Below are positions 1,373-21,486 of a stretch of DNA of 64,000 bases, piece by piece. Positions within the stretch are counted from its first letter, which is position 1. The number at the start of each line of letters is the position of its first letter. A model generated the notes under the pieces. That model searched no databases. It was not told the origin of the DNA and saw nothing but the letters and a program-made list of their open reading frames with translations. Origin of the DNA: Balanoglossus misakiensis (Eukaryota > Animalia > Hemichordata); assembly GCA_040954595.2 (NCBI GenBank), contig CM082592.2, positions 3,736,735 to 3,800,734 of the forward strand, given 5' to 3'. Position numbers and translations under genes: made by a program.

Positions 1373-1415
1373 ACTGTATATTAACGGGGTGGTTATGTCA
1401 ATGGCATGATTGACG

Positions 1416-1961: not shown

Positions 1962-2072
1962 AATCACCCACTTCTTATTCACATACTTTTTCGTCTGAAC
2001 TTTTATCAACATGCACAAGCACTTCTGGTTATAACAACAATGTTTTATTACGAAATTACATATACATGTATT

Positions 2073-2092
2073 TATATATATATATATATATA
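2073..2092. repeat. (TA)n microsatellite
   Basis: Read directly from the sequence. Confidence 0.9.
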
Positions 2093-2380: not shown

Positions 2381-2944
2381 TCATGATTTCTTTTGTTTGT
2401 ACTTTTCATGTTCTTTGCATATTAACCGTAACTCGCCGCAGATTGACCTTAACAATCTAAGGGTTTCCATAGTTATCGTTTTTATCCCAGAGTCCGGATC
2501 ACATGCCTGTGTTTCTACCATCAACAGTAATGTTCGGAACAGCCGGATCTGTTCGGCGTGCAGACGCTCCGCCGATGGAATCACGTGTAAAACAAAATGT
2601 ATGTTAATTTCATCTTTTGTCAACCGCTTCAGGCTACATTTCAATGCATGCATGTCGGGTGATGACTCAGGAAAGGCGTTCGCGTAATCCGTCAAACATT
2701 CTTGAACATCGTCGACAAGGTTGGCATCTGGGACGTACCCTGATTCGGCATATTGTCTTTCAGCCCATGCGATGGGGTTAAGAGAAGGAGCGTTTCGTTG
2801 TTCGTTAGTGAGTTTAATCTTACATAATGGACAGGGGTTCTTATTCACTCCCATCCAATCCAGTTTGATCGTGGCTATTGGAGACAAATCGGATCGATTT
2901 GTACCGCCGTTTATCACGTCAATGAAGTCAATGCTACTGTTCAT
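2381..2944 (-). CDS. Viral hypothetical protein with putative split Zn site (CPLC ... HFVLH)
   Basis: 187-aa ORF with CxxC and HxxxH motifs and a helical C-terminus. Confidence 0.7.
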   Translation of the reverse strand: MNSSIDFIDVINGGTNRSDLSPIATIKLDWMGVNKNPCPLCKIKLTNEQRNAPSLNPIAWAERQYAESGYVPDANLVDDVQECLTDYANAFPESSPDMHALKCSLKRLTKDEINIHFVLHVIPSAERLHAEQIRLFRTLLLMVETQACDPDSGIKTITMETLRLLRSICGELRLICKEHEKYKQKKS

Positions 2945-3171
2945 TGTTATGCCAATTACAAATTATGAAATATTAAAGATGTAATTACATGGTGTTTTTG
3001 TTCGATACAGACAGCTACTATTGTATAGACTTTCTCTCGGCTGAATCCTCGGACAAGCGCACCTATGGATTATAACGAAATTGCGTAGTAAAGTCCCACT
3101 ACATTTAATTACCTGCTACATTACATTAATACATACAAAAATGAGTATAATACTTGCGAGGGGGGGTGTGA

Positions 3172-3546
3172 TCAAAATACGACAAAATCTTTGTCATCAA
3201 GTATTAATTCTGTCCGGACATGCGTCTTTTGTAGGGGCTGGTCTATGCAATAATGTTCAGTTGTGGGACTAATGTGGCTTGAGGTAAACAGTGAGCTACC
3301 AAAATCCTCATCGATTAGTATGCTACTGCCGGCGTCGCTATTGTCAACGTCTGATGGGGTCGTGATACCAACATTTTCAGGCGGGTGTGAGTGGTCTGTT
3401 TTATCATAGTCGCCAACTAACGTGCTGTCATCACTGTCAGAGTCTGACAAGAGTTTGTTACCACCATCTTGAAAGGAAGACAGTTCGTCTGCATTTGGTG
3501 ATCTAGGCTCGTCGCCATGGTCCATGTATCCACTATGTTCAGACAT
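3172..3546 (-). CDS. Acidic Ser/Asp-rich hypothetical protein
   Basis: 124-aa ORF with biased composition, divergent from ORF 3614. Confidence 0.55.
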   Translation of the reverse strand: MSEHSGYMDHGDEPRSPNADELSSFQDGGNKLLSDSDSDDSTLVGDYDKTDHSHPPENVGITTPSDVDNSDAGSSILIDEDFGSSLFTSSHISPTTEHYCIDQPLQKTHVRTELILDDKDFVVF

Positions 3547-3613
3547 TCGATACTCTGTACAATCCTCTTATATTTAAGTCCACTCTTGACGCTAATACGT
3601 TTAAGTATATACC

Positions 3614-3835
3614 ATGAGCCAACAGGGTACTGAAGAGTCCCCTGCTCCCGTGCAGCGACCTCCTTCTTCGCCCAAATCTTCAAAATCACCTCTGTCTAAT
3701 GTCAGAGAAGCCGCAGATATCTTTATGAGGATGTTACAGATTACAGTGCTTAACGTAACCGATTCAAACCCTGAAGGCAACAACGAAAGCCATGACGACA
3801 GGAAGCACAAACAACTTGTATCTAGTCTCTCATGA
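3614..3835 (+). CDS. Small Ser/Pro-rich hypothetical protein, overlapping the next ORF by 44 nt
   Basis: accATG context; TATTTAA at 3571-3577. Confidence 0.5.
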   Translation: MSQQGTEESPAPVQRPPSSPKSSKSPLSNVREAADIFMRMLQITVLNVTDSNPEGNNESHDDRKHKQLVSSLS

Positions 3836-5312
3836 CTGTTCTTTGACACACATTGTTGGCACGCTCGAAGCACAATGTTCATTGGCGTGGCTTCGGTTCC
3901 TATACGAAAACAGACTGAGGCCATCGGCACCCAGAGAGACTGCCTCACTGACAACTGACTTATATGACATGGGAAAAACAATTGACAGGCACTATGTTAA
4001 TGTCTATCCACCTCTATCGGAAGATATTGCGCAAACACTACAACCCCTCCTACTCTGGTGCAAAACTCAACTCTCATTTCTGGAGCTGGTGAAACAAGGT
4101 CAACTACGGGCGACCTTGAACGGGTTAGCGAAGGGCCGTTGTACCGACCTGAAACTATTCGACAAGACGCTAAATGAACACATCCGTTTCCAATGGGCAG
4201 AAAAGGAGACAGATGAACTCTGTCAACTCGCAGATGTGGTGATGGATTTTTTAATAATGTTCGGAACCATGCCCGCCCTTCCAAGAGACGTTATACACTC
4301 CTCATATGCCTGTTGGGAATGTCGTTTCGAAAATGCTTTACTGCCAAGAAATAGGGAGGAATTAGAGGTTGGTTGTTGCCATTTATATCGCGCGGTGTCA
4401 TGCTCGGAGCAAGAAGACGACCCTATACCATGCCAAGCAACCAATAAACCGGAAATTATCGATACATCGGACGTTTCTGTATATCCGCTGGATGTACAGA
4501 TGAGAGTTAGACAAGTGGCCCGTGAAAAGCAGCGACAGACACTCATACTACAAGAGATTGAAAAAGAAATCCAGACGTTAAACGTTCGATTGGAGTACCA
4601 ATTGGCGCCGAAAGTACTATCTCTCGACGTTTTCAACAAGGTAAAACGAGTGTGCGATGGTTTGGAACTAAGAAAGTCAGCGGCAGCTTTTTTCACAGAT
4701 ACCACACAACCAGTCCATATAGACAATGCATGTTGTCGCAGATTGATGTATTTGATGGAACAGGTTACATGGAGCGAGATGCTACAAAATCGTGCGTTAG
4801 ATCTATACTTTTGGTTGACGATGGACCCTCTTACTCTAAGTAATAGCTCGTGGAGACTCGAGACCACATATAGAATGTGGAATGATGCCGCGGGTATGGA
4901 CATTTTTAAAGTATGTACATTTATAGACCAACTGAAAAAAACCCGCCCAGCCGACGTACTACGCGATGAAGGTGGTCCATGCAACCTATTATTCCGAAGT
5001 TGTTACATGCAGTGTCTACTGAAGGAACTAGGACAAATCCATCACTTTCAAGCCCCTACAGCACACCGTGCAGATACCTGGGATAATACTTCCGACGGCA
5101 TGATATTTTACTATGATAATGACTCGTTTGGTCTGTACATTACTGGTCGCGGTATACATTCTTTCCAGTACAAAGAGTCCGCAATCGCATTCACCGTGTG
5201 GTTATATCATACCACAATGAAAAATCAACCTATACATAGACATGTTTTTCAAGGCTGTCCACTAAAACCGGAACAACCGCTCTTTTATAGCGTACCCACC
5301 ACAAAGTCATAG
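3792..5312 (+). CDS. Viral hypothetical protein (506 aa) with central coiled-coil
   Basis: Long ORF followed by AATAAA at 5436; no family recognised. Confidence 0.8.
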   Translation: MTTGSTNNLYLVSHDCSLTHIVGTLEAQCSLAWLRFLYENRLRPSAPRETASLTTDLYDMGKTIDRHYVNVYPPLSEDIAQTLQPLLLWCKTQLSFLELVKQGQLRATLNGLAKGRCTDLKLFDKTLNEHIRFQWAEKETDELCQLADVVMDFLIMFGTMPALPRDVIHSSYACWECRFENALLPRNREELEVGCCHLYRAVSCSEQEDDPIPCQATNKPEIIDTSDVSVYPLDVQMRVRQVAREKQRQTLILQEIEKEIQTLNVRLEYQLAPKVLSLDVFNKVKRVCDGLELRKSAAAFFTDTTQPVHIDNACCRRLMYLMEQVTWSEMLQNRALDLYFWLTMDPLTLSNSSWRLETTYRMWNDAAGMDIFKVCTFIDQLKKTRPADVLRDEGGPCNLLFRSCYMQCLLKELGQIHHFQAPTAHRADTWDNTSDGMIFYYDNDSFGLYITGRGIHSFQYKESAIAFTVWLYHTTMKNQPIHRHVFQGCPLKPEQPLFYSVPTTKS

Positions 5313-5495
5313 GACGGAATGAAAATAGAGTGTGCATATAAGTTGATTCTGAATTTCATTCAATTCAAGACACGGTACACGTCTATGGCTTACGAAAAAA
5401 AATACTCACTGGTTGTGCATGTTTGTTTTATCATCAATAAATAACAAGTGACACATTTTCGATGTATTTGTTCATTACTTCGTTTTATTTTTTTC

Positions 5496-6092
5496 CTAAA
5501 CTCTCTTCTTAGTGTCGCGAATGACTCTCCAGTTTACATCCAACTGTTTGTGAACATAAGGAAAAGTCCAGTCTTCACTTTTAATATTTTCGTCCCTGAT
5601 TGTAGTCATCGCTTGAATAAATTCCTTATATTCTCTCCGGATAGATTCTATGGGATGGTCTAACTCCATGACAGTTGTGCGACCCCAAACAACAACCATG
5701 TTCTCTAGTTCCTTTAGTCTACTTCCTGCTTTGATGTGCATACTCATTTTCTTTTGTGGAGATTGGTCTGAATTATTTAGTATCATCACAAGTGACAGCA
5801 CGATCGAGAAAACGGACAACTGGAGGACAAACAGACATTGAAACGGTCGCTGATGGGAACTTACGTAGTCATTGAGTACGCTTCCGACATTTATCATACA
5901 TCCACTGATTATTATTATCGATATAAATCTCAAAAACCTTGTCCAAGTCTCGTATCGGTCAGCGCTCAGATAGTGCGATACACAGTGAAAATGCAACGAA
6001 TGTGTAAAGTTTTCCGCCATATCGCGGAAATTCCTTCTGACATCTAATGCGTCGATTGGCCGATTTAAACCACAATGGCTTGAGTTTTCCAT
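5496..6092 (-). CDS. SLATT-like two-transmembrane protein (198 aa from ATG 6092)
   Basis: SHYLSADRY, then TM1 (FLRFISIIIISG), TM2 (LFVLQLSVFSIVLSLVMIL), then MHIKAGSRLKELE; this fits the SLATT pattern H..aa.rY-TM-TM-H..ag..y..L. Poly(A) signal just past the stop. Confidence 0.65.
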   Translation of the reverse strand: MENSSHCGLNRPIDALDVRRNFRDMAENFTHSLHFHCVSHYLSADRYETWTRFLRFISIIIISGCMINVGSVLNDYVSSHQRPFQCLFVLQLSVFSIVLSLVMILNNSDQSPQKKMSMHIKAGSRLKELENMVVVWGRTTVMELDHPIESIRREYKEFIQAMTTIRDENIKSEDWTFPYVHKQLDVNWRVIRDTKKRV

Positions 6093-6197
6093 AATTATTA
6101 TACAAACTGTACTAACGTTCGCAAATTGTGACCGCGTTCTTCTGTTTTCTCGCACGCATGGCTGGGTACTTGGTGTGCCTTTAATATCAATATATCC

Positions 6198-6470
6198 GTG
6201 GAAGGCATCTATGCAAACATTGACTTTGAAGACAGACTCTGTGAAATATGTACAGGAGGTGTGGAGGATGAATTTCATGTAATATTTTTATGCCCATTGT
6301 TTCAGAGCTTAAGATATTCATTACCACACGACAACTCCGAGTCTCTTTATGAAGAGAAATTTGTAACACTGATGAGGTCAAAGTCGCCAGCAGTGTTAAG
6401 AAACCTTGGCAAATTTGTACATGTCTATATCTCGTCGGTAAATCACCATCTTACATGTACTTCGATATAA
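6198..6470 (+). pseudogene. Fragment resembling the C-terminal CCHC zinc-knuckle region of a non-LTR retrotransposon ORF2
   Basis: GIYANIDFEDRLCEICTGGVEDEFHVIFLCPLFQSLR...FVTLMRS...LRNLGKFV matches the typical LINE tail RLC..C...vEDE.H....Cp.y...R. No in-frame ATG precedes the motif. Confidence 0.6.
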
Positions 6471-6477
6471 CCTTAAG

Positions 6478-7020
6478 CTATGCGAACCCCTTTACAACCT
6501 GAGCGACTTTATCTTCTAATTCACCCAGGCGCTGTCTCAAATTGTTTGTTTCTTGGCCGTGTACAGTACGGTGATTATGTAATACCCGAGCATTGGATAT
6601 TGCATTGTACCTATTATACAGTGCCATCAAGACAACGGACATCATATCTCCTACGTGAATACACAATCTGGCGTGGAAATCAGTTTCGGATATTTGTCGA
6701 AATCTTAAATCGAGCAAAGATAGACTGGCTAGACGAATAAAAGATTCCGCCAGAAAATATGAAAAGGTATCCGTTGAGTCATAAACACGAGATAGAATCC
6801 CCACCAATGTCCACTTTAGCCCGCAAAACAAAGCGGCAAAAAACAATTGGAAATTAATTCCGACTGAAGATATATAGTTATAACGATCATCCCCAAAAGT
6901 CTTGGCGATACTACCGTTGACTTCAAGATGGGAAATAGACAGATAAGTTCCTATTATATAGGCCAACGATGCAAACACTAACGTGGAATATTTAGCAAAT
7001 CGACTTTCTAACCGTCGCAT
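6478..7020 (-). CDS. Multi-pass membrane protein with C-terminal coiled-coil
   Basis: 180 aa, three to four hydrophobic segments, tail LRQRLGELEDKVAQV. Confidence 0.7.
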   Translation of the reverse strand: MRRLESRFAKYSTLVFASLAYIIGTYLSISHLEVNGSIAKTFGDDRYNYISSVGINFQLFFAALFCGLKWTLVGILSRVYDSTDTFSYFLAESFIRLASLSLLDLRFRQISETDFHARLCIHVGDMMSVVLMALYNRYNAISNARVLHNHRTVHGQETNNLRQRLGELEDKVAQVVKGFA

Positions 7021-7085
7021 ATTGGCACTTATGGGTTATTTACGTCAACACGATGCACAAGCAACGTTATTAAGTTCTCATAGAT

Positions 7086-7727
7086 ATGTGGTTATTTCGG
7101 AACAAACGAGCAGAAAGCAAGGAAGAAGAAGCGCGTAAGAAACGCATTGAAAAACAGAGGGAGATCGCATTGCTGATCAAATCAAACGAACAGAAAGCCA
7201 ACGACCTAGGTAAAAAAATTGTGTCGCTAGCGCTGGATAATACCGCCCCCACGCGTCGCTTTTCTACAGCCTACAAAGAAAAACTAGCCGCAGTGAATGC
7301 CACACTCCTCGAGAAAGTAACCACTGGATTAGTCAAGTTAGAAAGTCTGTCAGTGGATATCCAACTAGAAGATCTCCGCGTCCAACAAAGTCGTTTTCAA
7401 CAGTCCCGATATAAACTACTTCAAGAGGAAGAACGAGTGTTGGCGCGTAATTTGAATAAGTGCCCACCAAAGAGAATTAGAGCACAGTCCAATCGTTTAA
7501 ACCGACTACGAGAAGCCAACCGTTACAGAGACGAAATTATACAAGACTTGTACGAAGACAGTGATGAAGACTGTCAAGATTCGGCCTTTTGTCAAGCCGG
7601 TCTCGAAACTGTTGAAGAATTGCGCAATCAATTCACGGAGTCATCGTTGCTGGAGGCACCTAACGTTGTTTTAGGCAGCCTATCTTTAGAAGACAACGAT
7701 ACAGCAACACGCACCAAGCACAGTTAA
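7086..7727 (+). CDS. Coiled-coil protein resembling ESCRT-III (Snf7/CHMP family)
   Basis: 213 aa; MWLFRNK N-terminus; basic helical N-half; acidic DEIIQDLYEDSDED...VEEL...LLEAP C-half. The ORF is solid; the family call is tentative. Confidence 0.55.
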   Translation: MWLFRNKRAESKEEEARKKRIEKQREIALLIKSNEQKANDLGKKIVSLALDNTAPTRRFSTAYKEKLAAVNATLLEKVTTGLVKLESLSVDIQLEDLRVQQSRFQQSRYKLLQEEERVLARNLNKCPPKRIRAQSNRLNRLREANRYRDEIIQDLYEDSDEDCQDSAFCQAGLETVEELRNQFTESSLLEAPNVVLGSLSLEDNDTATRTKHS

Positions 7728-8239
7728 TTGCGACTATTAAAATAAAACCTCCTCAATTAGTTCTAACTTTTATTGACTCACGCATTTACTTCACACCGTG
7801 ATGTACACGCCCCACAGCGAACAGAAGACAACGATACAGCAACTCGCACCAAGCACAGTTAATTGCGACTATTAAAATAAAGCCTCCTCAATTAGTTCTA
7901 ACTTTTATTGACTCACGCATTTACTTCACACCGTGATGTACACGCCCCACAGCGAACAGAAGACAACGATACAGCAACTCGCACCAAGCACAGTTAATTG
8001 CGACTATTAAAATAAAGCCTCCTCAATTAGTTCTAACTTTTATTGACTCACGCATTTACTTCACACCGTGATGTACACGCCCCACAGCGAACAGAAGACA
8101 ACGATACAGCAACTCGCACCAAGCACAGTTAATTGCGACTATTAAAATAAAGCCTCCTCAATTAGTTCTAACTTTTATTGACTCACGCATTTACTTCACA
8201 CCGTGATGTACACGCCCCACAGCGAACAGAAGACAACGA
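7688..8239. repeat. Tandem array of 4 x 135 bp plus a 12-bp partial copy
   Basis: Unit starts AGAAGACAACGAT at 7688, 7823, 7958 and 8093, with a partial at 8228; copies are near-identical. Confidence 0.97.
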
Positions 8240-8374
8240 GGAAGAAACACGCAAGAAACGCATTGAGAAATAGAGGGGCCATAAAATTGTTGTCGATAGT
8301 GCTGGATAATGCAGCCTCAACACGTAGATTTTCTACAACATACAGAGAAACACTAGCTGTCGTGAATGCCACAC
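8238..8374 (+). pseudogene. Degenerate, internally deleted copy of the 5' part of ORF 7086-7727
   Basis: AAGAAACGCATTGA and GCTGGATAAT...TTTTCTACA...GTGAATGCCACAC match ~7120-7305; peptide LDNAASTRRFSTTYRETLAVVNAT versus LDNTAPTRRFSTAYKEKLAAVNAT. Confidence 0.85.
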
Positions 8375-9618
8375 CGTGGGGTACACATCCCACAGAGGCC
8401 ATCTTCAAAAGCAGTCAAATTGTAACATTCTTGTGACCCGCCTCTGCAAACGCGGATGGTTGGAAAATCTGGCTGATCAATGTATAATGCCACACCATGA
8501 CTAGGATATAACAGCGGTATTTTTACCAATCTATATGAATGACAGAGACCACACCTCGGAGTTAACGTGTCTTGTTCTAAATAGTACGTATATCCCGGAG
8601 CTCTGTTTTTTATATGCAAACAGGTTAGCACGCCGTAGCAATGTCGACAAAAAATAACGCTGGTGCGGTGAGCGATTGTAAACTGGACCTCTTCGCGGAC
8701 ATTGATCGCGCGTTTTAGTTTGGCGAGAATCAATCTATCCATGTCGTAAAAGAATTTAACCTGTCCCGCTCGGCCGTGTAGTAATAGTATCGCCTTGATA
8801 AGCCTCTTTTGCCACAGGCCTAACCGACGTATGAGACCGTTTACTGATTTTGAATTGTAATCAGTCAACTGTTGTCGAAGAAGGTGCAGGCGTGTCAAGA
8901 AGTGTCTATCGTTTGCAGATTCTCTATGGAAAGCCACGAGATTCAATGGCCAAGACCATACCATTCGCTCATAAACATGTTTGAGGGTGGTAGGTAGATG
9001 GGCGGCCGAAATCCGAGGCATCCTATTCAGAATAATTTTACATAATTGTCTATGGGTGGGTGTCCTGAGCTTGGGAATACATCGTTTCAATTTTGCTTTG
9101 AAAGAATCAGAGTCACACGTGCTTAGATGAAGGACAGTCGAGAGTCTCTTCACCGAACAAACATTCCCTTGGTAGTTGTGGAACAATGAGCCACTCCATT
9201 GCATCGTTGGCTCGGCTAGCTTGTCATAAAAGTGGATTAACACGAGTAACCTAATCCAGTTAGGATGTTGCAGGCACCATTCAGTGGTTAACGACAACCG
9301 TGTTATACGGTTGTGTACCCGCTGCAATATAGAAAGAATATCTGTCCATTGATTTTCTCTCACTAGATTATTTAGTCCGTGCGTGTCTTTACAATCAATC
9401 GCAAACGTCACAAAGTCATTTACAAAATCCCTCGTATTGGGTGTCTGCACTCCGGGGAAAGTGATGCTTGCGCGATTGAAGCAAGACTGGAATAAGTCCA
9501 TACCTAATGCGCGGGGGGGAGCTAATGCGTCGATTTTATGAATGTCGTGTGTTAAATATGTCATACACAGCGTGCGTGTACAGTTCAAAGTTCCCTTATG
9601 TGAGAACAGAAATACCAC
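8353..9618 (-). CDS. Protein with four C-terminal Cys pairs, similar to beta/gammaherpesvirus UL49/ORF66/BFRF2 late-transcription factor (true start may be ATG 9564 or 9501)
   Basis: IFCRHC, RCGLCHSYRLVKIPL, VCRGGSQEC and LCGMCT follow the order and context of the four Cys pairs recalled for KSHV ORF66; size is similar. Confidence 0.55.
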   Translation of the reverse strand: MVFLFSHKGTLNCTRTLCMTYLTHDIHKIDALAPPRALGMDLFQSCFNRASITFPGVQTPNTRDFVNDFVTFAIDCKDTHGLNNLVRENQWTDILSILQRVHNRITRLSLTTEWCLQHPNWIRLLVLIHFYDKLAEPTMQWSGSLFHNYQGNVCSVKRLSTVLHLSTCDSDSFKAKLKRCIPKLRTPTHRQLCKIILNRMPRISAAHLPTTLKHVYERMVWSWPLNLVAFHRESANDRHFLTRLHLLRQQLTDYNSKSVNGLIRRLGLWQKRLIKAILLLHGRAGQVKFFYDMDRLILAKLKRAINVREEVQFTIAHRTSVIFCRHCYGVLTCLHIKNRAPGYTYYLEQDTLTPRCGLCHSYRLVKIPLLYPSHGVALYIDQPDFPTIRVCRGGSQECYNLTAFEDGLCGMCTPRCGIHDS

Positions 9619-9869
9619 AAGTAAACATGCAATGGACGTGAATACAAGAACGCTCTTTTATTCGCTCGTTCAGGTATACATTTTCTTGTTATGTTTCAAC
9701 CTCGTACAAACAAAAATACCACAAGTAAACATGCAATACCGCAAAAGAAATATTGGACGGTACGCTGGCAAACCGCCCTCTACCGGCGGATTTAGAATTA
9801 CTGTCTGAATGAGGGTAAGTGATTGTGCTTAGTTGAGTAAGTAGAGGTCTGCTATGTGTCGACGCCCTT

Positions 9870-10832
9870 TTAAATTAACTGCACCGCTAAATATATACTC
9901 ATGAATATGGAAGAACAAATACATAAAGGGTAAACTACCGACGACCACCGCCACAGGGCAGACTTGGACACATCAGGAATGACTTCAAATGTTAGGTCAA
10001 CCGCCGGATCTTTGTAAGCAGCATCGCATTCTGGGGGTTCGCAACAACTTAAGTATATTGTCAACGTTGAATGATCGTCACTCGCCCAGTCTTCGACCAG
10101 ACAACAAGTATAATTGTACTCGTAATAAGTGTACAAAATCTCGTGTAACATGCATAACCGTTTGTACAAATGATACGTCTCGAAAGAATCTTGCAATTTC
10201 GCAACTATCTTATAACAATGAGTCAAATGACCAACTGGGTCATCCACACTGTCGTATCTGGTGATCTGTCCATTCACACAGTTTTCGATAGTCTGGTACA
10301 TGTCTGTCCCTTTCATATCTTCTTTCTCTTGACTATAATAACATGTACTCGCCCTTGTGTTGAAATCTGCTTCCAAGCGTATCACCAACCTCCTGTATAA
10401 TTTTGACTTTAGAACTGTTACATCGAAGCACATACTGTAGGTTCTTTCAAACATTTTCAAAGAATAGACTAGACTTCCTATGTCACATCTGTCAACTTGT
10501 CGCTGATCGCTACTACACATTATAAAATACATGGTATACAGACCGTCTTCGTTTGCACAAAGAGAGTGATCTCTTCCCGACAACAATTTTAAATTGAACG
10601 GGTGCCGGGCCAGTCCAAATATCAAAACGTCCATTATATCACGGTCTGATACAACGTCGGTTTCCGGAAGTTTTTCAAACCAGACGGGCCATGTTGACAC
10701 GCTTAAGTTAGATTTGGCAACGTGTACATCGTCTAACATATATTCCGTGTTCGGATGTTGTTTAGATTGGGAATCACTTGAAACTGCGTCTGAAATCGCA
10801 TAGGCTCTATTCGACCACGCAGGGTTGTCCAT
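9870..10832 (-). CDS. Membrane protein with C-terminal transmembrane anchor
   Basis: 320 aa ending in VVYPLCICSSIFMSIYLAVQLI; Cys-rich body. Confidence 0.75.
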   Translation of the reverse strand: MDNPAWSNRAYAISDAVSSDSQSKQHPNTEYMLDDVHVAKSNLSVSTWPVWFEKLPETDVVSDRDIMDVLIFGLARHPFNLKLLSGRDHSLCANEDGLYTMYFIMCSSDQRQVDRCDIGSLVYSLKMFERTYSMCFDVTVLKSKLYRRLVIRLEADFNTRASTCYYSQEKEDMKGTDMYQTIENCVNGQITRYDSVDDPVGHLTHCYKIVAKLQDSFETYHLYKRLCMLHEILYTYYEYNYTCCLVEDWASDDHSTLTIYLSCCEPPECDAAYKDPAVDLTFEVIPDVSKSALWRWSSVVYPLCICSSIFMSIYLAVQLI

Positions 10833-10948
10833 GTTGGGTTCCCCTCTTGAGAGAATGCGACCACGGCAGGTGTTACGTCACCCAACTGAAGACCATTCAC
10901 AGACATTAATAACATCAAAAGAAAAGGGGTCGTCATTGTCACCAGCAT
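10733..10948 (-). CDS. Short signal-peptide ORF, possibly the frameshifted N-terminus of 9870-10832
   Basis: MTTPFLLMLLMSVNG signal-like sequence; TATTAA 49 nt upstream; overlaps the next ORF in another frame. Confidence 0.4.
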   Translation of the reverse strand: MLVTMTTPFLLMLLMSVNGLQLGDVTPAVVAFSQEGNPTWTTLRGRIEPMRFQTQFQVIPNLNNIRTRNIC

Positions 10949-11031
10949 GTGTATGTGTGTTGGTAGAGTACGATTGTAGATAACGTATAAATTAATATAT
11001 GCACATTAATAATTCGGGAGGTGTTATTCTT

Positions 11032-12357
11032 TTACAGGCAACAACACAGCGATGCAAGCGGTGAACACAGGTCGTTACACAATTGTTTAGCCTTAGAAGG
11101 AAATTGTTGATGAATGTCTTTAACTATGGATTTTTCAACCACAAAATGTATAGGTTCCCTGGACGATTTTATCCCAATATCCTTTTTTTTTATTGGTTGT
11201 AAATTGGCCATGTCCTGAGACGAGGGTTTACAAGTCTTGTATGACGTCAAAGACACAACATTATCTATATGATCCAAAAGGCTACCGTTGTTGTTTTTGT
11301 GTAATATTTGTGCGTGTGCATCATCTTGCTCGAAAAGATAGAATGTTACCGACGAAGAATAAATGTCACTTTCGTGAAGATGTGCACGGTCTGGTCCGAT
11401 TTCAAAATGTTTTTCGATGACTATTGCGACTCTATCATTACAGTGGTTTTTCATCGCCCTTAACACGGACGGTTGCAGTTGCTGCAGACGCAACGAATCT
11501 TTACGGCTGAAATTCCGTGGGGTCAGAGGATCATCCAAAACAGAGGTTGTGGCGGAACACATGACTGCAACGACTTGTTTTAACAGAGGCAGTAAACCGT
11601 CTTCCGGTGACATTAGGCGATGGATGTAATTTCTGTACGCAGACCGAGTGATGAATGGGTTATTCGTAGACATGCATACTTCATGAATAAACCTCTTTAT
11701 CCGCACATACAATTGATCAAACTCTATATATTTTGATTCTTGGGTGATACCAGCGATTATGTTTTTCACCAGAGCAAACAATAGTTGTAGATGTCTTTCC
11801 AGACAACTTATTGCAAATAATGCTGAATAAAAATTGGCCGACAACCACTGTGGTGTAGATTGAATCCAGAAAGGGTCGTCAAAGTCACTGCGTGTACTCA
11901 GTCCATGGCCCGCGAAAGTTTCCACGTCCGTTCTACACTTGACAGCACGTGGTACTTGTAAATGTTTCAGCGAATTCTCGATGGTTACCTTCCATTTTCT
12001 CAACCTCGCATTGTTTATAACATCCACCGTAACGAACGAATGGCATATTCTCCGCAGTGTCCTCATTAATATTTCGTAGAAAGGGTTGTCACTAACATAC
12101 GTAACTCCGTCAAATGTCCATGAAAATACGTAGTAATCAAACCGTTCATATTGAATGTATTCCTCCCAATTCCCTTTCAACGTGTCGTCAAATAGCGAAG
12201 TTATAAGTTCTTCATCCTCGACGTCCTTTAACAGAATGTAAACATCTCGCCTATCCCGACAAGTTCCTAAATTGATAATACTTTCCCACTCTTGACAGTT
12301 TTCTTTGCAAGGAACAGGGCCTACTATGAGTTCGGGAGGTTGTTTGACAATATCCAT
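11032..12357 (-). CDS. Viral hypothetical protein (~441 aa)
   Basis: Long ORF with first ATG at 12357; no family recognised. Confidence 0.8.
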   Translation of the reverse strand: MDIVKQPPELIVGPVPCKENCQEWESIINLGTCRDRRDVYILLKDVEDEELITSLFDDTLKGNWEEYIQYERFDYYVFSWTFDGVTYVSDNPFYEILMRTLRRICHSFVTVDVINNARLRKWKVTIENSLKHLQVPRAVKCRTDVETFAGHGLSTRSDFDDPFWIQSTPQWLSANFYSALFAISCLERHLQLLFALVKNIIAGITQESKYIEFDQLYVRIKRFIHEVCMSTNNPFITRSAYRNYIHRLMSPEDGLLPLLKQVVAVMCSATTSVLDDPLTPRNFSRKDSLRLQQLQPSVLRAMKNHCNDRVAIVIEKHFEIGPDRAHLHESDIYSSSVTFYLFEQDDAHAQILHKNNNGSLLDHIDNVVSLTSYKTCKPSSQDMANLQPIKKKDIGIKSSREPIHFVVEKSIVKDIHQQFPSKAKQLCNDLCSPLASLCCCL

Positions 12358-12544
12358 AGTCAATTCAAAGACTCTCAAAGCAGTCTGTTAATGGTCTCAT
12401 ATTGACGCAAAGTAGAATTACGGCTATGAATAAAAGAATTACTGTTAAATTGATTGTTTTGTCCAAAACGTTTTGAATCTGATATCAACGTGACAGGCGA
12501 ACCATGTCGGGCGAAACTGGCTGATATCAGTAATGTTTACAGTT

Positions 12545-12870
12545 GTTGCTGATTGGTTGAACCATCTTCAATCATCTGCTCACTTGCAAAACAGAATAAC
12601 AAACTGAACAGTATCGGGAATTTCAGAGTTTGGGTGGGAAATTTTCCAACAACATTGTATTGTAGACACACAGAGACACGATTAGAACAGAATATTGAAG
12701 GAGATTGATTATTGATGCGTGTGACATTGCAGAGGGCGTTCAGTTGACTTCAAATACACGGTAGCCACCATGCAAATTTAGTCACCGTTTCCATGGAAAG
12801 TTGAGATGAAGCCAATCACATATTTTGGCGGGGTGGCCGAATGATCGGGGAATACACTATAAAAAAAACA
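12545..12870 (+). promoter_or_regulatory. Pol II-type promoter region with kappaB-like sites, CCAAT and TATA
   Basis: GGGAATTTCA at 12616-12625, GGGAAATTTTCC at 12636-12647, CCAAT at 12812, GGCGGGG at ~12827, TATAAAA at 12858. Confidence 0.4.
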
Positions 12871-13196
12871 AGACAGTGAACACCCATGTGTTTTCTTTAT
12901 TTACATACATTTAAATGCGAACTAAAGACCCCGAACCCAGATAGCCCTTCTATAGACCGGACTTTGAAACAGCCATGCCCCTAATTGTTCTGACCCTAAA
13001 AGATGTACAAGTTGGCACGTTTGTCCTTGAATTAGCTCGTGGATGACATCGACTGTAGTATCATGTCGCGAGTTCGACAGGTATGTTCACGGTGTACCTA
13101 CTTAAACGAGTAGGTTTAATTAAAAGTCACCACAACGCTCAACTACTTTCTACGTAAACGATCGGCGTTCATACTGTTCGAGAAGCTATCAGCAAA

Positions 13197-13634
13197 ATGA
13201 CAGAACGGGCCTCTGTTCGAAACGGACAAGTATTTTATGTGTGCACAACGCTAGACTGCGAAGCTGTCGGTTTCAAATCTCTCGATGGACTCTGTTGTAG
13301 GTGTTACGCACTGAAGGCCCCGAACCCAGATAATCCTTGTACAGACCGGACTTTGCAACAGCCACCGGGTAATGCCACCCACTGTTCTTACCCTGCTTGT
13401 TCCAACGTCGCCGTGTCGGAAAATATCCTATTATGCCGTGTATGTCTAACCATCTTAGACGAAAAGGGAAAGACACCCGGCAAAGAAAGACGCATGTCAA
13501 CAATCAAAGAATCCACCACAGAAGACAATCCCTCTGTACCCAAAACTCTGTGCAGGTTTCCGGCTTGTACCCACTTCGGCAACGAAGATTGCGTGGGATA
13601 TTGTAACGAATGTTATAAAGTGTTGACGAAATAA
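13197..13634 (+). CDS. Protein with three A20-type zinc fingers; the last is TNFAIP3 ZnF7-like
   Basis: Three C-x4-C-x11-C-x2-C motifs; the last reads CRFPACTHFGNEDCVGYCNEC. aaaATG start; AATAAA at 13695. Confidence 0.9.
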   Translation: MTERASVRNGQVFYVCTTLDCEAVGFKSLDGLCCRCYALKAPNPDNPCTDRTLQQPPGNATHCSYPACSNVAVSENILLCRVCLTILDEKGKTPGKERRMSTIKESTTEDNPSVPKTLCRFPACTHFGNEDCVGYCNECYKVLTK

Positions 13635-13779
13635 TAGGATTTGACGCTTCCATAGTTTCGTTGTGGACACACTTGACAGCATTCAAAAACTGGCAATAAA
13701 ATGACCAACATAACTAATATTTTTTTCGTCTATTGTCTTTTGTAGTAAGGTCGCAATGCTTTCCCAGCATGCACGTGTC

Positions 13780-14655
13780 TCATTTGATCCCCGTGCATGA
13801 CTTGTTAAAGACATGTCTTCGACGACAGTATGTGGACTTCCCATATTTATGTGCTGTTATCTTCGGATTTAGTTTGTGAAGATGGTATTTAAGTTCGCAG
13901 TAAAATAATGCAATTTCTGATTCCATAATTTTTAGAACAGTCTTCAGTAGTGGCCAACATCTCGTTAAAACAACCACTAATATTATTCCTTTATACAAGA
14001 GAAATTCGAACACGTATTGGAGGCCAGCCACGGCGCAAATATCGGTCATGACAGTAGGGTTGCAATCTCCACGAAGTGACACCCAAAAAAGTAACTGAAG
14101 TGGGTAGTACATGACATATCTCGAAAGTGTAATACTTTTGTACCACTGCAAATCTGCACACAACCCACCGGCCCCGACACCTCTCTGTATCCAATAAATG
14201 ACATCTTGCCACCAATTGCGGATGTTCGCGCAACCACCACGTGTGTTGAGAGCTGCCATGGCATCGAATATGTCCATATGCCAAGCGATTTCCGAATGAA
14301 TAGGTTTTCCAGAAAAACAATGTCCTTCAAAACACCTTTTGAATTTCTCAAAACCTACGGCTAAAGGATCTATGATTCCTCTCAAATCTTTCACAATAGC
14401 GCTCAAAACAACACCTAAACCACCAGTGATTTCCTTGAACAACTTCACGAGAAACAATCCTATGATTGAAACGACAGCTGTTGCCAGCGCGATGTACAAA
14501 TATGAATTCCAAGGTGCAAATCTGTAAAGAGTCCGACATACAGCTTTTGTGAGATGCCAAGCGGAAAGCTGGTGTTTCACAGTATCCTTATGTCTGTATA
14601 TCTGAGCCTCGTACTGGTACACGACTTTATCGTCTGCCTTGTGCCCTAAAACCAT
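13780..14655 (-). CDS. Cys-containing membrane protein with N- and C-terminal hydrophobic segments
   Basis: TMs LYIALATAVVSIIGLFLV and FLLYKGIILVVVL; first ATG at 14655; head-to-head with the terminase. Confidence 0.75.
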   Translation of the reverse strand: MVLGHKADDKVVYQYEAQIYRHKDTVKHQLSAWHLTKAVCRTLYRFAPWNSYLYIALATAVVSIIGLFLVKLFKEITGGLGVVLSAIVKDLRGIIDPLAVGFEKFKRCFEGHCFSGKPIHSEIAWHMDIFDAMAALNTRGGCANIRNWWQDVIYWIQRGVGAGGLCADLQWYKSITLSRYVMYYPLQLLFWVSLRGDCNPTVMTDICAVAGLQYVFEFLLYKGIILVVVLTRCWPLLKTVLKIMESEIALFYCELKYHLHKLNPKITAHKYGKSTYCRRRHVFNKSCTGIK

Positions 14656-14727
14656 GGCGCCCAGTGGTATCTCAAGATATAATATATTTATCACGTTATT
14701 AATGTGTAAAAATATTCTCTACCGGTC

Positions 14728-15432
14728 ATGGAGGCAGACAAGCTCAGCCCATTTGTCAGAGATGCCCAGAGAATGGACGCTCTCATTACACAGTGTAGAC
14801 AACAACAAGACCAACTTAGGGGTGTGTTTTTAAGAAAACACGCGTACAAGGAAAACTATATGTTTTCTCGCGTTGAAGACGTAGACGCGAGACTGTCTTT
14901 AATGAAAAGGGCTATACAAACCATCCGATTGTTATGCAAGGGGAAACAATTTACGTTCGAACCTTTCCAGGAGGAGATGTGTAGGGCCATAATGTTAAGT
15001 CGCTTACGACATTTTTTTGGTGAGGAATCTAAAAAGTTTTTCTTGCCTGTGATGAAATACCTAGGTATAATTTCAGCACACTTTGACGAGCGAACATGCG
15101 ACAGAATCAACCTATCGAGAGTACGTAGCCAAATAGAAGAATATAACCATAAGTTTATCGTTGTCATGGTACCGAGACGCTCTGGTAAAAATGCCACCGC
15201 GCAAATTATTGCCACGACACTTTTATTGTACGAACCAAATTGTTCAATCATAGTTTGGGCTCAAGACATGAACTGTGCGTTACTGAACAAAGAAGGTATA
15301 TGTGAAAATCTATCGCTGCTCAAGACAATATCTGACATACCATTCGATTTTCGCGTTTCCGGGGATACGGTGACAGTCGTAAGATGTGATGGTAGTAAAG
15401 GCACTCTGCGCGTAAAGCCTAATTCGCCTAAT
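14728..15432 (+). CDS. DNA-packaging terminase ATPase subunit, exon 1 (herpesvirus UL15/TRM3-like)
   Basis: FEPFQ adenine-binding Q motif; hydrophobic strand plus Walker A FIVVMVPRRSGK; IIVWAQ strand. Ends KPNSPN|GTAAGT, a phase-0 donor at 15433, 81 codons after the Walker A Lys. Confidence 0.85.
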
Positions 15433-16009
15433 GTAAGTGTAAACACATTCCATCTACTATTATGTATTTGCATTGTATCCAGTTTACATTTTGTGTTCAA
15501 TATTTATTTCATTATTGCGTACACTTGGATGGTCATCTCAATGTAGTTGTATTTGTAGAGGCCTATGGCAACTGGCCATGGCGAAAAGATAAAGGTGCCA
15601 CGCTCGACACTCTATCACTATTTGATTTACGTTTGTGTATGGGTTCGAATGGCACAAAAGTCACAGGACGCAAATGTTTAGATCACAGTGTATCATTTTA
15701 TTGCGTGTCATACCGATATACAAAGTTAGTACGTACAATTAAACGCTTTCTTAAAGAGTCAGTCAGTGTACTAATCTCAAAATGTGGTCGCTATCCATTC
15801 ACACATGGATCATGCTTCCTTTGTCCCAATGATCGTAAAATTCATCCCATCACACCTGTTTAGATGTGTACAAATCAGCCGTCGAGAGTTCACAAATACT
15901 ATTCTACTTAATCGCCATATAATGGTCACGAGAGGGCGCCGTCGCTTGCTGTTTTGTTAGTACAGCACAGGTCAATCAAGGTCATCTATTGTGTTCTGTC
16001 ACAGTCCGT

Positions 16010-18082
16010 TCAATTGGCAAATGCGAGGCAATTCATTCTTCGCGCTTGGCTGGCACACGACACTGCGTCAGTGGGTAGTTTAAGATGATCATATATTTCA
16101 TCAAATCGACGTTTAAACGACTCTTGCATCACCGCTACATTTCTTTGGTGCATTTCCATTTGCCTGGCCTGGGACGCGACCGTCTGCGTTAACTCATCTA
16201 CTTTCGAATTGAGCTGTGCCTTATCAGACTCCAATTGGACTATGCGCATTTCTCGCTCTTTTAGCATAGCCATTACATTCTCCGCGGCTGCTGATTGCTC
16301 CCTACAGTTTTCCAACTCGGAACGGAGCGACTCGATAGCAGCTGCTTGTTCCGCACTATGTTCTTGGTGACGTGAAATGGCATTGTACAGACAAGCGCCC
16401 TGTTTCGAGTTGAGAAACTGTACGATAGCTTGAAAGTTCTCATGACTATTCCTTGTACGGGGGCTGTCTTTCACAAATTCTTTCAATAGTTGACATTCTA
16501 TAGTGGCGATCGTGATATCGCGTTCTGTTTTCTTGAGTAGGCGACTACCGACCTTTTTCGACATGCCTGATGTGATCTCGTCAACGCCGAATACAACAGT
16601 GGCGCCTGCCAACACCGAGGACATGGCAGTGACGTAGCAACCTAACACAGTATAGCCGAATTTATCATACTGTGTGCACAAGTCGACGCGTGAAGAGTTG
16701 GAATATTGCGGTTTTGAGCGAATGATTCGGGCCACGGTGGAAACAATCGCACTATTCTGACATGGTTCGTTGTTTTGACCGGATAATCCTAACGGACACT
16801 TGAATTTAGTTCCAGATCTGCTTTCTATCAGTTTTATTGCGATTCGTTTTGTTGGGCCAGACGATTCGATTACTTCAATGGTTGGGTTGTCCGGGATAAT
16901 TGCGTCGTTAGAAACGGTTACATTTATCACTTTGCAATCTTCTAAGGGTTTCATAATCTTAAACCAATAAATTGTCGCTGGATACACTTGTTCACCAACG
17001 TGCATGTAGTACAAATTGTTCTTTAATTGTGGGGGCAATTTATCGCAATCTCCATACAGCACAGGCATCCCAACCACAGCCGCGGCAGAATTTATGTCAT
17101 CCTCTGTCGACAGTTGAATCAAAGGAGGGGTTTTCGAGTCCAAGAAATCGCATACATAATTCTTGTTCCGTTTACAGTCTTTCATTCGCTTGCGCTTGGC
17201 AGTTACCGAAGTATTGTCTCCCAACAGCGAAAACTGATCGTTTCCACATTGCACAGTAATAAGGTTCCAGGCCTCTTTCGGAGATAGCACGTGATAATGC
17301 CCGTCTTTCATTAAAGCGATGCACGGAAAATCATTGCTTTGACCTTTCTGTAACATGTATGATATAGGTGTTCTGATTGCGTCGTGAAACTCTTTCATAC
17401 AGTCATTATCGCTTGTGTATAATGACAGAATAGCACCAAAATTGCCGCGAATGGTCAAATGGCGTTCCGCGTCGTTCGATTGGTCTGGTATTAAATCCTG
17501 AGTATAAGACATCGGACTTTGTGCGTCGAGCGGGGGGTGAATTTCAGCGGCAGATGCGCGAATTTCCTCTGGAACTTGATAACTGGTGCATGGATGAGAA
17601 ACTGCAGTGGCATTCTCTGACGGCCCCGGGTTATATTGTTCAGTGTGGTTGTCGGATCCACCGTGCCGGTCCGCGTGATAGAACGGAGAAGAGTCTATCG
17701 AACTGGGTTCATTATGGACTAAGAATTCGGTCGTTGCCTCTGTGGCATTCACGCTCGGGGCCTGACGGGTATGATCTGATACGCCTAGCAACAAATCTAT
17801 GATGTTTGGAGACTCGTTCACCATTTCGGCCGAAAAATCTTGTTCAATATCGTCTCCAAATAAAAAGTCTTGGACGGTGGTATAAGGCTCATCGCTCGAT
17901 ATATCAGGAGCCATTTCTACATCACAAGCCTGTATGACAAAAAATGAGGAAATGTATTAACAGTTGTGCGAAGACACAGTGGGTTAACAAACAAAATGCG
18001 TTTAATGTGTATATGTACTCACGGGAATTTGAACCTGTCGGAGTACCGTCTGTAGAAAATCACTATAATCGGTTTGAGCCAT
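16010..18082 (-). CDS. Spliced hypothetical protein (~659 aa; exons 18082-18023 and 17929-16010) with C-terminal coiled-coil
   Basis: 93-nt GTGAGT...TACAG intron joins MAQTDYSDFLQTVLRQVQIP in frame to ACDVEMAPD; TATAAA 42 nt upstream of the ATG. Confidence 0.8.
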
Positions 18083-18491
18083 CTTCAATAATAAGCTGTA
18101 CTCGTGGTTGACGTTCGCTTTATACATGTGCAACGTGTGTTCACATCAACATGCATGGGTTAAATTCATGTATGTTGTTGTGTATCCATCCCAGTTTACG
18201 TGTAGGCCGTCGCGATCACGTGACAAAATACGAGGTCATTATTACCACCACAAGCTACATATAAGCTGCCGTGACCACGTTATGTGTATGTATTTGTATG
18301 TATAAATTACTTCATGTACGTGATGTGTAACTATAAAGGTGATGTAGTTACATCGAGACACCATCTTAGTACACACACACTGCACAACTTGCATAAAATG
18401 TAGTTCATACACGTATACAAGCACGGTGTTTTGTATCAAAAATAGTTTAATAACAGCTATTCTACAATGACTTTAACAACCACTGTAAGTA

Positions 18492-19381
18492 TCATTCTGT
18501 CAAGTTCATTTTTTCGTCTAGGCCAGGGACCATCTTACACATTTCGGATAATGCTAGAGCTAATATTCTGTTTTCCAGTTCTATATTGGATATTTTATCT
18601 ATGGGGTTGTTTTCAAAATCTGTAACGCTTTCGTCATCATGCAACAACAATTTGAACCACAAAATAATCGCTACGTATGAGTCACCTTCGAAATTGATGA
18701 CGGATATTGAGTCATTTGCATAATCAGATATATCACATAGTACCGGCATTCCAAACTTCGCATACAACCACCTGTTGGATCCTTCAACAAAACGGTCTGT
18801 TTTAAGTCTGGGTGTCTGTTCTACAAAATTACCTAACGCACGTGGGTTTGTAGTTAACCCAAGTTCACGAAGGATATCATGGCTATTTTGCAAAACCATG
18901 GATTCTACCGCGTCTAAATAATGCATGGCTTGTACACTGCCATCTTCCCTTAGGAAAAGGGTTGAACACCTATCAACACCAGGAGTAGCTAAAGCTTCCA
19001 GCGAAACAGTACACGCACTGGGGACTGATTGCCAAACTCCTCCACGTTGTTTATAAAAAGCTATGTATTCTTTGAAACACGACCCGTGTGCTTGTATCGT
19101 TTTTATTTTATTTAACAGTATCATTGGATGGTGATTTTGCGACCTCCGGTGTGTTGATTGGTGAACATCCTCAGAGACGACCTAAACAGTTGCATTGATA
19201 GAGAGGAAGATAGAAAGAGTGGTTTAGTGGAAAGTAATATTTAGTCAAATGTTGGGCAACCCGATTTACATGTAGAATGACATGTACGTACCTCAGTTGT
19301 ATTTTCAGTAGATATATCCCGGGATGAATCGTCGGGTTCATGAATAGGCGTTTCCGTATGTTGTTCTTGGATCACACGAAC
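18492..19381 (-). CDS. Spliced paralogue of the 16010-18082 gene (exons 19381-19292 and 19181-18492); first exon not found
   Basis: GTACGT...TTTAG intron at 19291-19182 keeps the frame; a further acceptor TTTTGTAG lies at 19382; shares DG, TPxL, GMPVL and YxAxIxWFK motifs with its neighbour. Confidence 0.75.
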
Positions 19382-19466
19382 CTACAAAAAAACAAACAAA
19401 AGTGTAACATTTTTAACATTGCTTGGGACCACTCCGCTTAATGGTTAGCACACACACACACAATCG

Positions 19467-20020
19467 CTGGCTCGCCGTTGACTGTACAAGCGCGCCCTCA
19501 ACCGTTAACAAACAAACGAACACCGCTTCGCAATGTCCCAGCGTAAATCTCTCTTGACAGTAAAGTTTAATTGGCGGTCCACGGGATACTAATTAAACAG
19601 TTTTCAAAGCAATGAAGCCCTTACACGGAGGCGTGAAAAACTAATTGTCCGCCTCGAGCTAGCTAAGTATTCGGCTTCAACCGACTCGCCATTTTTAAGC
19701 GCAGCCAGATAGTAGCGCGTGTTAACCCCCCCCCCCACCCCAACCAAATCAGCGACGAACCTTCAATGCCGGCTGACTGGTAGCAGAAAACACAAACGAC
19801 CTTGAATCACACCACGACAGTAGTCGGGTCTGTGAGCACCCCCAAACGCAAATTTATCGGCGAAAAACTACGGGAGCTTTTTGAAACAGCGACACTGGCT
19901 CGCTGTTGACTGTACCAGCGCGCCCTCAACCGTTAACAAACAAACGAACACCGCTTCGCAATGTCCCAGCGTAAATCTCTCTTGACAGTCAAGTTTAATT
20001 GGCGGTCCACGGGATACTAA
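19467..20020. repeat. 126-bp direct repeat pair (19467-19592 and 19895-20020)
   Basis: CTGGCTCGC...CCACGGGATACTAA occurs twice with 3 mismatches by eye. Confidence 0.95.
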
Positions 20021-20039
20021 AATGATCGACCCAGAAGTG

Positions 20040-21486
20040 GCCAGTAACGTTTGAATTCCTAATTTGCATACAGTTCCCCAACTTTGTTTAGCAATTTGCA
20101 ACCCATTTCTGACAATAATTCACCCCAGGCACATTACTGGTACTATGAGTTTACTACGTGTGATTTTTCATGAAGTTTTAAGAAATTCTTTACCTTCACT
20201 GACAAAATGTCAACGTGACCTTGAAGTTACAACTTTTGTAAACAAATATCTGCCATACCCACACAAAAATTAACCCCTCATGTTTTAGAAACATTATTAA
20301 AACCCTCTATTCATCATTTTGACACGAATACAATCCCCCCCTCCCCTTCAACTTGAAAGAGTTATCGCTGCCCGAGTTGTAGGTAGATCAAAATGCAAGT
20401 CATCGAGAGCTATTTGAGCCATAGATAAACAATGCGTAAATTTCTGCTGTATTTAGATAATAATCGCGGTCTCTACGTCAGTCGACAACTTTTGCCGGGC
20501 CGTTGATACTTGCCATAACGTAATTCGAATTGTATATTTGCCATAGCGCTACAAATCTCATTCACCTGACATGTCTTATTTCGGGCCACCAACACGTTTT
20601 TGACAAATAGTTTACGATACAAGTCGATTGAAATGTGGCAAATAAATGTTGAATTAAACGTACGTACCAGTTCTGTATCTCCGCCGGACAGATATATGTT
20701 GAAATCATTGGATCGACAAATCGGTGTTTCCTCTTGCAGTTCACGGAGAAGGCGGTTCTAATAACAACAAATACCATAAAAAAATATTTGATAACATTGG
20801 ATGAAGTTGTTAAATTCTCACAAAATCTATTTTACCTCATTTACATTGACAAGAGTATTTGATACATCTCTGCACACTCTGGTGAGAATAAAAAACTTAC
20901 GTAATCATCTTGCCCTAGTAATGATTCGGATATATTTTCATCCAGCCCAATCAAATCCATGTTGTCTGATAACAGTTTATACCAAGAAAATGGTAGCAAC
21001 ATGAAGACAACCCTAATATTTATACAAGAACACTTCAGAAGTTAATTAAAATCACATGTAGGCACTTGACGACAATTATTCATGCCATCAGACAGAAAAT
21101 GACATTAGTTGGTCTCTCGTGTATAATTGTTTGACTCGAATATTGAAACTTGACGACAGACATTGGACATGGTGCAACGCAAACGCTTGAACTTGCCAGT
21201 AACGTTTGCATTCCTCATTTGCATACAGTTCTGGCAATTATTTCACCCCAGGCACATTACTGGCACTATGAGTGTACTACATGTGATTTTTCATTAAGTT
21301 TTATCAAGAAGAATTTCTTTACTTCCACTGACAAAATTGTGAACACGAAATTCAAAGTGACCTTGAAGGTAACAAAAACAAAAAACAAAGAAAAAAAAAA
21401 TATCTGCCATACCCACACAAAAATTAACCCCCTCAGGTTTTAGAAACATTATTAAACTCATCTATTCAAAATTTTGACATGAATAT
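20040..21486. repeat. Diverged ~290-bp direct repeat pair (~20040-20329 and ~21195-21486)
   Basis: Shared blocks GCCAGTAACGTTTG, CACCCCAGGCACATTACTGG, TATCTGCCATACCCACACAAAAATTAACCC and TTTTAGAAACATTATTAAA. Confidence 0.9.

Follow-up and report, generated by a model that had tools for sequence, protein, structure and literature searches.

The window, i.e. the whole 64,000-nt stretch of DNA that was analyzed, contains a gene-dense virus-like segment, which carries one exon of a terminase gene, and host-like animal DNA to the right of it. The following features were identified:

1–20020: gene-dense virus-like segment, open at the left edge of the window
3792–5312 (+): candidate gene for terminase subunit 2 (UL28-like), a 506-aa ORF with a CxxC-x17-CxH motif at about residue 174, as in alloherpesvirus-type ORFs
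14728–15432 (+): exon 1 of a herpesvirus-type large terminase, encoding N-terminal helices, an EPFQ motif and Walker A
14959–14970 (+): EPFQ motif, inside terminase exon 1
15172–15189 (+): Walker A motif PRRSGK, whose lysine is K154
15433–15438 (+): splice donor GTAAGT in phase 0, conserved in the family of homologs and in alloherpesvirus-type and orthoherpesvirus loci
15433–15546 (+): non-conserved read-through, 37 hydrophobic codons with a stop at 15546
16010–17914 (−): antisense gene of 634 aa, coiled-coil C-terminus, no known family
18492–19124 (−): antisense gene of 210 aa, no known family, with a candidate upstream exon at 19292–19382
19467–19592 and 19895–20020: 126-nt direct repeat (98% identical), likely the right end of the viral DNA
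20034–64000: host-like animal DNA with microsatellites, CH-domain, glycine N-acyltransferase-like and sulfotransferase genes, and EGF exons
43902–44564 (−): CH-domain gene (E 7e-16)
47094–47969 (−): glycine N-acyltransferase-like gene
51831–53213 (+): sulfotransferase gene
58981–62700: tandemly duplicated EGF exons

Positions 14728–15432 code for that half of a herpesvirus-type large terminase which contains Walker A, and their end is marked by a GTAAGT donor in phase 0. The frame opens with an ATG at 14728, is free of internal introns and closes with codon 235 (…KPNSPN), which ends at 15432, directly before the donor. This confirmed the frame and donor described in a sequence-only reading of this DNA, and a recount from K154 to codon 235 (K+81) reproduced its distance of 81 residues between the Walker A lysine and the break. 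The P, R, R, G and K of the Walker A motif are invariant (alignment A2). The read-through past the donor, which the same reading had regarded as hydrophobic junk, indeed consists of hydrophobic codons, and the corresponding tails of the relatives lack conservation. Given the frequency of GTRAG in the element (0.00095 per base), the chance of finding such a site in phase 0 within ±2 codons is about 0.005.

Both sequence and fold searches identified the encoded protein as a terminase. Exon 1 matched the terminase large subunit in PHROGs (PHROG 9, E 8e-4); direct sequence searches of PDB and Pfam with exon 1 alone gave no terminase match except one weak member, and a 24-row family profile aligned with HSV-1 pUL15 in PDB from Walker A to the last strand (E 0.12). 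An AlphaFold model of exon 1 was obtained with a pLDDT of 86.8. The top matches of a BFVD fold search were ranid HV3 (E 1.3e-8), sturgeon HV2 ORF62 and RaHV-2 ORF68, down to E 6e-7, followed by clam and orthoherpesvirus terminases. A Foldseek search of PDB ranked P74-26 TerL and the HSV-1 terminase highest, with no row at E <= 0.001, and a VIA structure search aligned 163 residues with HSV-1 pUL15 (Z 15.1, rmsd 2.5). The exon-1 product has the N-terminal ATPase region of the UL15 family, with a PRRxGK Walker A motif in the TerL fold.

Loci for comparison of the intron site were collected by two motif scans. A Walker A motif scan of IMG/VR provided 92 loci with the orthoherpesvirus motif, which were fetched. 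A second scan with an alloherpesvirus-type motif gave 14 loci: 10 chance matches and four terminase exons of large genomes, which we take to be of the alloherpesvirus type from their motif, their size and weak Pfam hints. In 79 of the 92 orthoherpesvirus-motif loci, a GTRAG donor in phase 0 lies at K+76 to K+82; in 31 of the 92 it is exactly at K+79, with exon ends such as SHNTN; exon 2, where a locus reaches it, starts with [SG]-[ILM]-R-G. These results agree with what the sequence-only reading had stated on UL15, namely that exon 1 ends in …SHNTN about 79 residues past the lysine, just before GIRGQ. The 13 loci without GTRAG in this range include three with N-V or N-A at the same place, three with an early stop yet with exon 2 present, and one that is cut. 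Two of the four alloherpesvirus-type loci could be mapped, and both have a phase-0 donor after Asn; in loci L098 and L101 an earlier intron stops the frame.

From the residue numbering of HSV-1 pUL15 (T265, W266, R346 and E357; PMC7196598), the HSV-1 junction is at 343|344 and the arginine finger is the third codon of exon 2. The profile alignment of the window's family with the orthoherpesviruses is colinear up to window residue 232 (probability 96.6, E 6e-10), from which three residues lead to the junction in the window and four in the orthoherpesviruses. With the alloherpesvirus-type locus L100 (hhalign E 2e-17), the final residues of the exon are in exact register, although the read-through was included. 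The alignment of the orthoherpesvirus and L100 profiles with each other is weak (E 2.5e-4), and their junctions fall two columns apart. In the structural comparison, model residue 235 aligns to residue 135 of P74-26 TerL, four positions short of R139, which corresponds to R346 of UL15 (PMC7196598); on pUL15 the aligned range ends at chain residue 363/364, not 343, which is a range only, with a tail pLDDT of about 67. From these alignments we read the window site as homologous to the UL15 intron site, with 1–2 codons of uncertainty in the loop, and by the same comparison the end point of exon 1 would be three codons before the UL15 arginine-finger position. A phase-0 GT donor at this distance from the arginine finger is thus matched exactly by L100 and with a one-residue loop difference by the orthoherpesviruses. 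The alignments did not place the break elsewhere, and the proposal that the intron has the same position and phase as in HSV-1 UL15 holds within that one residue.

Searches for homologs retrieved 3, 23 and 42 proteins, none with an informative name. The family was aligned as 51 rows (the window and 50 homologs, 18–70% identical to it); P0021, a repeat protein without Walker A, was dropped before counting, and 11 cluster members at least 90% identical to others (P0025-29, P0057-62) were omitted. Immediately past the aligned junction, V occurs in 51/51 and V-S in 50/51 rows, compared to a V-S background of 31 in 9,230 dipeptides; Asn directly precedes the junction in 46/51 rows, and the Walker A lysine is separated from it by K+79 to K+85 in 49/51. 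Past the junction conservation collapses, with tails of 3–347 residues in the relatives. The donor DNA itself was seen for two of the 51 rows (the window and the JGI locus L094, both GTAAGT), and in the protein-only rows the donor was inferred from the V-S read-through, because V-S is the phase-0 translation of GT(A/G)AGT. Since it has been kept over such a sequence distance across the family, the donor is very likely used in splicing.

Each of the 50 homologs is known from an exon-1 ORF only, without read-through into Walker B, and a search limited to 798–2275 residues found no longer homologs. The longest near match, P0037 (635 aa), was considered as a full terminase and rejected, being a read-through. 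Window exon 1 is 62–70% identical to its three nearest relatives. The proteins P0008-P0056, from ENA, Logan, JGI and NCBI assemblies, form a larger sister group of exon-1 proteins, with a Walker A motif that is mostly APRRNGK, and all end at the same site. Scans for family loci returned only a phage (L001) from IMG/VR, none from GTDB and a single locus, L094, from JGI.

When exon 1 was compared by phmmer with 2,135 frames of the loci that had been fetched, alloherpesvirus-type frames scored E 2e-7 to 1e-5 and the best orthoherpesvirus frame E 0.006. An unrooted tree of 59 rows was computed from 31 of the 51 family members, 24 of the 79 orthoherpesvirus sequences and the four alloherpesvirus-type ones (three of them partial), a set without malacoherpesvirus, ictavirus, ranid herpesvirus or mirusvirus rows. 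The 24 orthoherpesvirus rows form one side of this tree at 100/100; the window is on the other side, in a group of eight family rows on long branches and outside the four-row alloherpesvirus group. Judged by these comparisons, the window terminase resembles those of alloherpesviruses much more than those of orthoherpesviruses, and the alloherpesvirus terminases are its nearest, but distant, relatives among the named groups compared. The proposed tie of the split to UL15-type viruses was not upheld, since the protein is closer to those of alloherpesviruses and the split has been published for alloherpesviruses and mirusviruses (PMC12768974).

The sequence-only reading had noted that antisense genes are contained in the orthoherpesvirus intron and also follow the donor in the window, and both observations proved correct. 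In the 68 orthoherpesvirus loci with both intron ends, the introns are 2,367–4,716 nt long, exon 2 follows right after in 68/68, at least one antisense ORF of at least 250 aa is present in 68/68, and two or more in 66/68. In the window, the donor is followed by the antisense ORFs of 634 and 210 aa. An acceptor-like site at 17930 suggests that the 634-aa gene has an upstream exon; this gene gave no match in the Atlas, and neither antisense gene matched the ORFs of the orthoherpesvirus and alloherpesvirus-type loci. The two genes are separated by an AT-rich non-coding gap (18000–18480) with short imperfect palindromes, recognized by eye, which may be a promoter or an origin.

Over the 48.5 kb of the window past the donor, motif, acceptor-led motif and profile searches of both strands gave no exon 2, the profile control (the orthoherpesvirus exon-1 profile on window exon 1) reaching only E 0.08. 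A search of weak sensitivity likewise found no arginine finger, Walker B or RNase H-like nuclease in the window or in L094. A candidate exon 2 at 43940 was rejected, as it is antisense over the CH-domain gene. When the orthoherpesvirus exon-2 profile was applied to the four alloherpesvirus-type loci, nothing was found within 10 kb; in these loci, exon 1 is followed by about 10 kb of mostly antisense genes. The orthoherpesvirus layout, an intron of 2.4–4.7 kb with UL16/UL17 homologs and a subsequent exon 2, was thus not seen here.

Past the same donor, L094 contains a sense mini-ORF, an antisense primase gene and a large sense ATPase gene, and only the terminase is common to this locus and the window. 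The mini-ORF (675–893, +) starts 54 nt past the donor and encodes a 72-aa histone-fold-like protein (Pfam Histone E 0.023); a TATAAAA sequence overlaps the donor and AATAAA is present at 895. A sense gene that lies inside the intron and brings a poly(A) signal along would hinder cis splicing. The antisense gene (901–2091, −) encodes a homolog of the primase whose gene lies antisense past exon 1 in the four alloherpesvirus-type loci (hhalign E 1.6e-8), and by this match L094 and the alloherpesviruses have a terminase–primase neighborhood in common. The third frame (2132–5770, +), open over at least 1,213 aa, has a P-loop (GPPGSGKS) and only weak AAA matches, and may be MCM-like. The sequence-only reading had concluded that the intron and its nested architecture are both deeply conserved: the intron site and phase bear this out, but the nested layout does not, as no exon 2 was found, the antisense genes are unmatched and the neighbors in L094 differ.

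ORFs cover 76% of positions 1–19500 and 15% of the sequence beyond 20020. The 126-nt direct repeat is directly followed by a partly duplicated host-like repeat. The virus–host junction appears to lie near 20020–20034, as seen in one assembly and with no sharp boundary in composition, so that about 4.6 kb of viral DNA appears to follow the donor. The observed/expected CpG ratio of the flank is 0.93–1.00; vertebrate genomes are strongly depleted of CpG. Since the flank has animal-type genes and no CpG depletion, the host is likely a non-vertebrate animal. Of the 16 tandem-repeat rows, 15 are beyond 32 kb, and the host flank also contains a 147-nt perfect inverted repeat (48644–48790 and 48939–49085).

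Several other ORFs were observed in the viral segment. The UL28-like ORF at 3792–5312 gave an hhalign E of 0.52 and a model with a pLDDT of 36.6, unusable for a fold search, and its assignment as terminase subunit 2 is unproven. The region 7086–8374 contains a 135-bp tandem array (4.1 copies, 99%; 7688–8239) with a 213-aa ORF on one side and, on the other, a degenerate and incomplete copy of the start of this ORF (7107–7305 vs 8223–8374). A 403-aa ORF (8353–9564, −) has a cysteine-rich C-terminus with several CxxC pairs and no family match, and an ORF at 13197–13634 (+) encodes an A20-type zinc finger (E 3e-4), an 86% duplicate stretch of which is found upstream (12918–12975).

The element was then compared with the known groups. 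The closest in sequence and fold is terminase subunit 1 of the Alloherpesviridae (of the CyHV ORF33, AngHV-1 ORF10, SalHV-1 ORF72/80/82 and IcHV-1 ORF62 type). Both have the EPFQ motif, a phase-0 donor after the same Asn and an exon 2 that is, or would be, far off, and in the relative L094 an antisense primase gene follows exon 1 as in the four alloherpesvirus-type loci. Unlike these, the window is on a long branch away from the four alloherpesvirus rows, lacks extra introns in exon 1 and does not have a primase gene beside it; its likely host is not a vertebrate, and the flank CpG argues against a fish or amphibian host. With respect to the 12 core genes of alloherpesviruses, the 20 kb of the element covered by the window contains the unproven UL28-like candidate, and a primase homolog was seen in the relative L094. 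The Orthoherpesviridae (UL15/UL89/ORF29/BGRF1-BDRF1) resemble the window in having the phase-0 donor at K+76 to K+82, compared to K+81, and antisense genes past it; they differ by one more residue in the last loop, a compact intron of 2.4–4.7 kb with exon 2 adjacent, nested genes that are not homologous to those of the window, and a separate clade, outside which the window terminase is placed.

The remaining groups were compared by published description. Mirusviricota have a stand-alone ATPase front-half exon ending before Walker B, and some of their sites match alloherpesvirus sites (PMC12768974); they differ in having protist hosts and often intron-rich genes, whereas the flank of the window, if the junction is real, has animal-type genes. 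Malacoherpesviridae and the herpesvirus integrated in amphioxus share with the element an invertebrate host and integration in an invertebrate genome, but their terminase genes are described as intronless (PMC2994540), whereas that of the window is split. [quoted passage not shown]

The best explanation, to which we assign a probability of roughly 0.8, is that the window contains what is likely terminase exon 1 of a herpes-like virus integrated in a non-vertebrate animal, with a donor at the intron site of ortho- and alloherpesviruses, likely spliced to a distant exon 2 of which the window searches gave no trace. If UL15 is taken as the model, two codons of exon 2 would precede that of the arginine finger, which acts in trans, and Walker B and the RNase H-like nuclease would be encoded further on in this exon. 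On its own, the product of exon 1 would be half an ATPase without activity, so that the packaging motor would be made only after splicing. Such a long-range layout resembles that of alloherpesviruses and mirusviruses and differs from the UL15 intron, which is compact (3.4 kb). As to how the gene is completed, given exon 1, we tentatively place trans-splicing with an exon at another place in the element first, with the loss of exon 2 from the integrated copy as a real possibility in second place; splicing across fused genome ends is unlikely, and any other route has only a marginal chance.

A sub-case of this explanation, which we consider rather unlikely, is that an ancestral donor has been left in a gene that is dead in the integrated copy: the viral DNA would have been cut about 4.6 kb past the donor with loss of exon 2, and the intact virus would have a long cis intron. 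The apparent stop of viral DNA near 20020 beside a partly duplicated host-like repeat is consistent with such a cut, the gene order past the donor, different from that of L094, fits a rearrangement, and since cyprinivirus introns are about 24 kb long (PMC11259805), a 4.6-kb cut would remove exon 2. Yet exon 1 is undamaged and shows the same degree of conservation as its metagenomic relatives (62–70% to the three nearest), the neighboring ORFs are long and open, and the right end has spliced-looking genes and the 126-nt direct repeat, which may mark a true genome end. If the repeat near 20020 is indeed a true end, the intron would span the genome ends, with exon 1 facing outward at the right end and exon 2 located at the left end. 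This is doubtful in our view, but there is a precedent in LMP2 of EBV, which is spliced across fused terminal repeats (PMC3540077). If true, splicing would occur only from circular or concatemeric genomes, motor expression would be tied to genome topology, and the element would represent an undescribed lineage of invertebrate herpesviruses with 50 or more relatives.

It is improbable that the element is an endogenized mirusvirus, or belongs to some other lineage of Duplodnaviria outside Herpesvirales, and that its terminase is trans-spliced. Mirusvirus terminases are trans-spliced, at sites some of which match those of alloherpesviruses (PMC12768974), the 50 homologs have no informative names, and mirusvirus sequences were absent from the comparison set and from the BFVD matches; against this, the flank consists of animal DNA, exon 1 is uninterrupted by introns, and the primase neighboring the terminase exon in L094 matches the alloherpesvirus-type primase (E 1.6e-8). 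Still less probable is a fossil donor, with the front and back halves of the ATPase as two separate proteins or the gene simply truncated. Although the absence of Walker B and of longer forms among the homologs would fit, an unused donor would decay, yet V-S is retained in 50/51 rows at 18–70% identity and with tails of 3–347 residues, and the break falls inside the ATPase domain. That the two antisense genes, which lie within 3.7 kb of the donor, are UL16/UL17-like content of an orthoherpesvirus-like intron with exon 2 next is scarcely credible, even with two or more antisense ORFs in 66/68 orthoherpesvirus introns, as no exon 2 is found in any plus-strand frame at 19130–20100 or beyond, neither gene is similar to orthoherpesvirus or alloherpesvirus-type ORFs, their size order is large-then-small, L094 has other genes in this place and the terminase falls outside the orthoherpesvirus clade (100/100).

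The spliced orthoherpesvirus gene and the multi-exon terminase genes of alloherpesviruses and mirusviruses have been reviewed, with post-transcriptional control suggested as the reason for the intron's retention (PMC13595911), and the matching split sites of mirus-, allo- and orthoherpesviruses have been aligned (Extended Data Fig. 8 of PMC12768974). Trans-splicing was demonstrated by metatranscriptomes for mirusviruses and hypothesized for alloherpesviruses (PMC12768974). The terminase intron of CyHV-2 is about 24 kb long and contains 12 genes, nine antisense and three sense (PMC11259805); in SalHV-1 the exons are in ORF72/80/82, with the primase and subunit 2 as ORF73 and ORF74 (PMC13030845). 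Nothing on the intron position was found in the accessible parts of PMC12031113, PMC5601938 and PMC11092209, and a literature search, which left most subscription papers outside its reach, found no earlier report of a terminase intron in an invertebrate herpesvirus. The shared split is thus a published trait of related viruses, which limits the surprise, and is here found in a new invertebrate lineage.

Because the split has also been published for alloherpesviruses and mirusviruses, it is likely ancestral rather than a link to UL15. [quoted passage not shown] Invertebrate herpesviruses have so far been known for intronless terminases (PMC2994540), and a split at the site of ortho- and alloherpesviruses in an invertebrate element and 50 homologs argues for an ancestral intron and not a feature of vertebrate viruses. 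Genome surveys would see only half a terminase here, which may explain why the homologs lack names. An integrated animal copy without a downstream exon 2 is also a place to compare cis and trans splicing.
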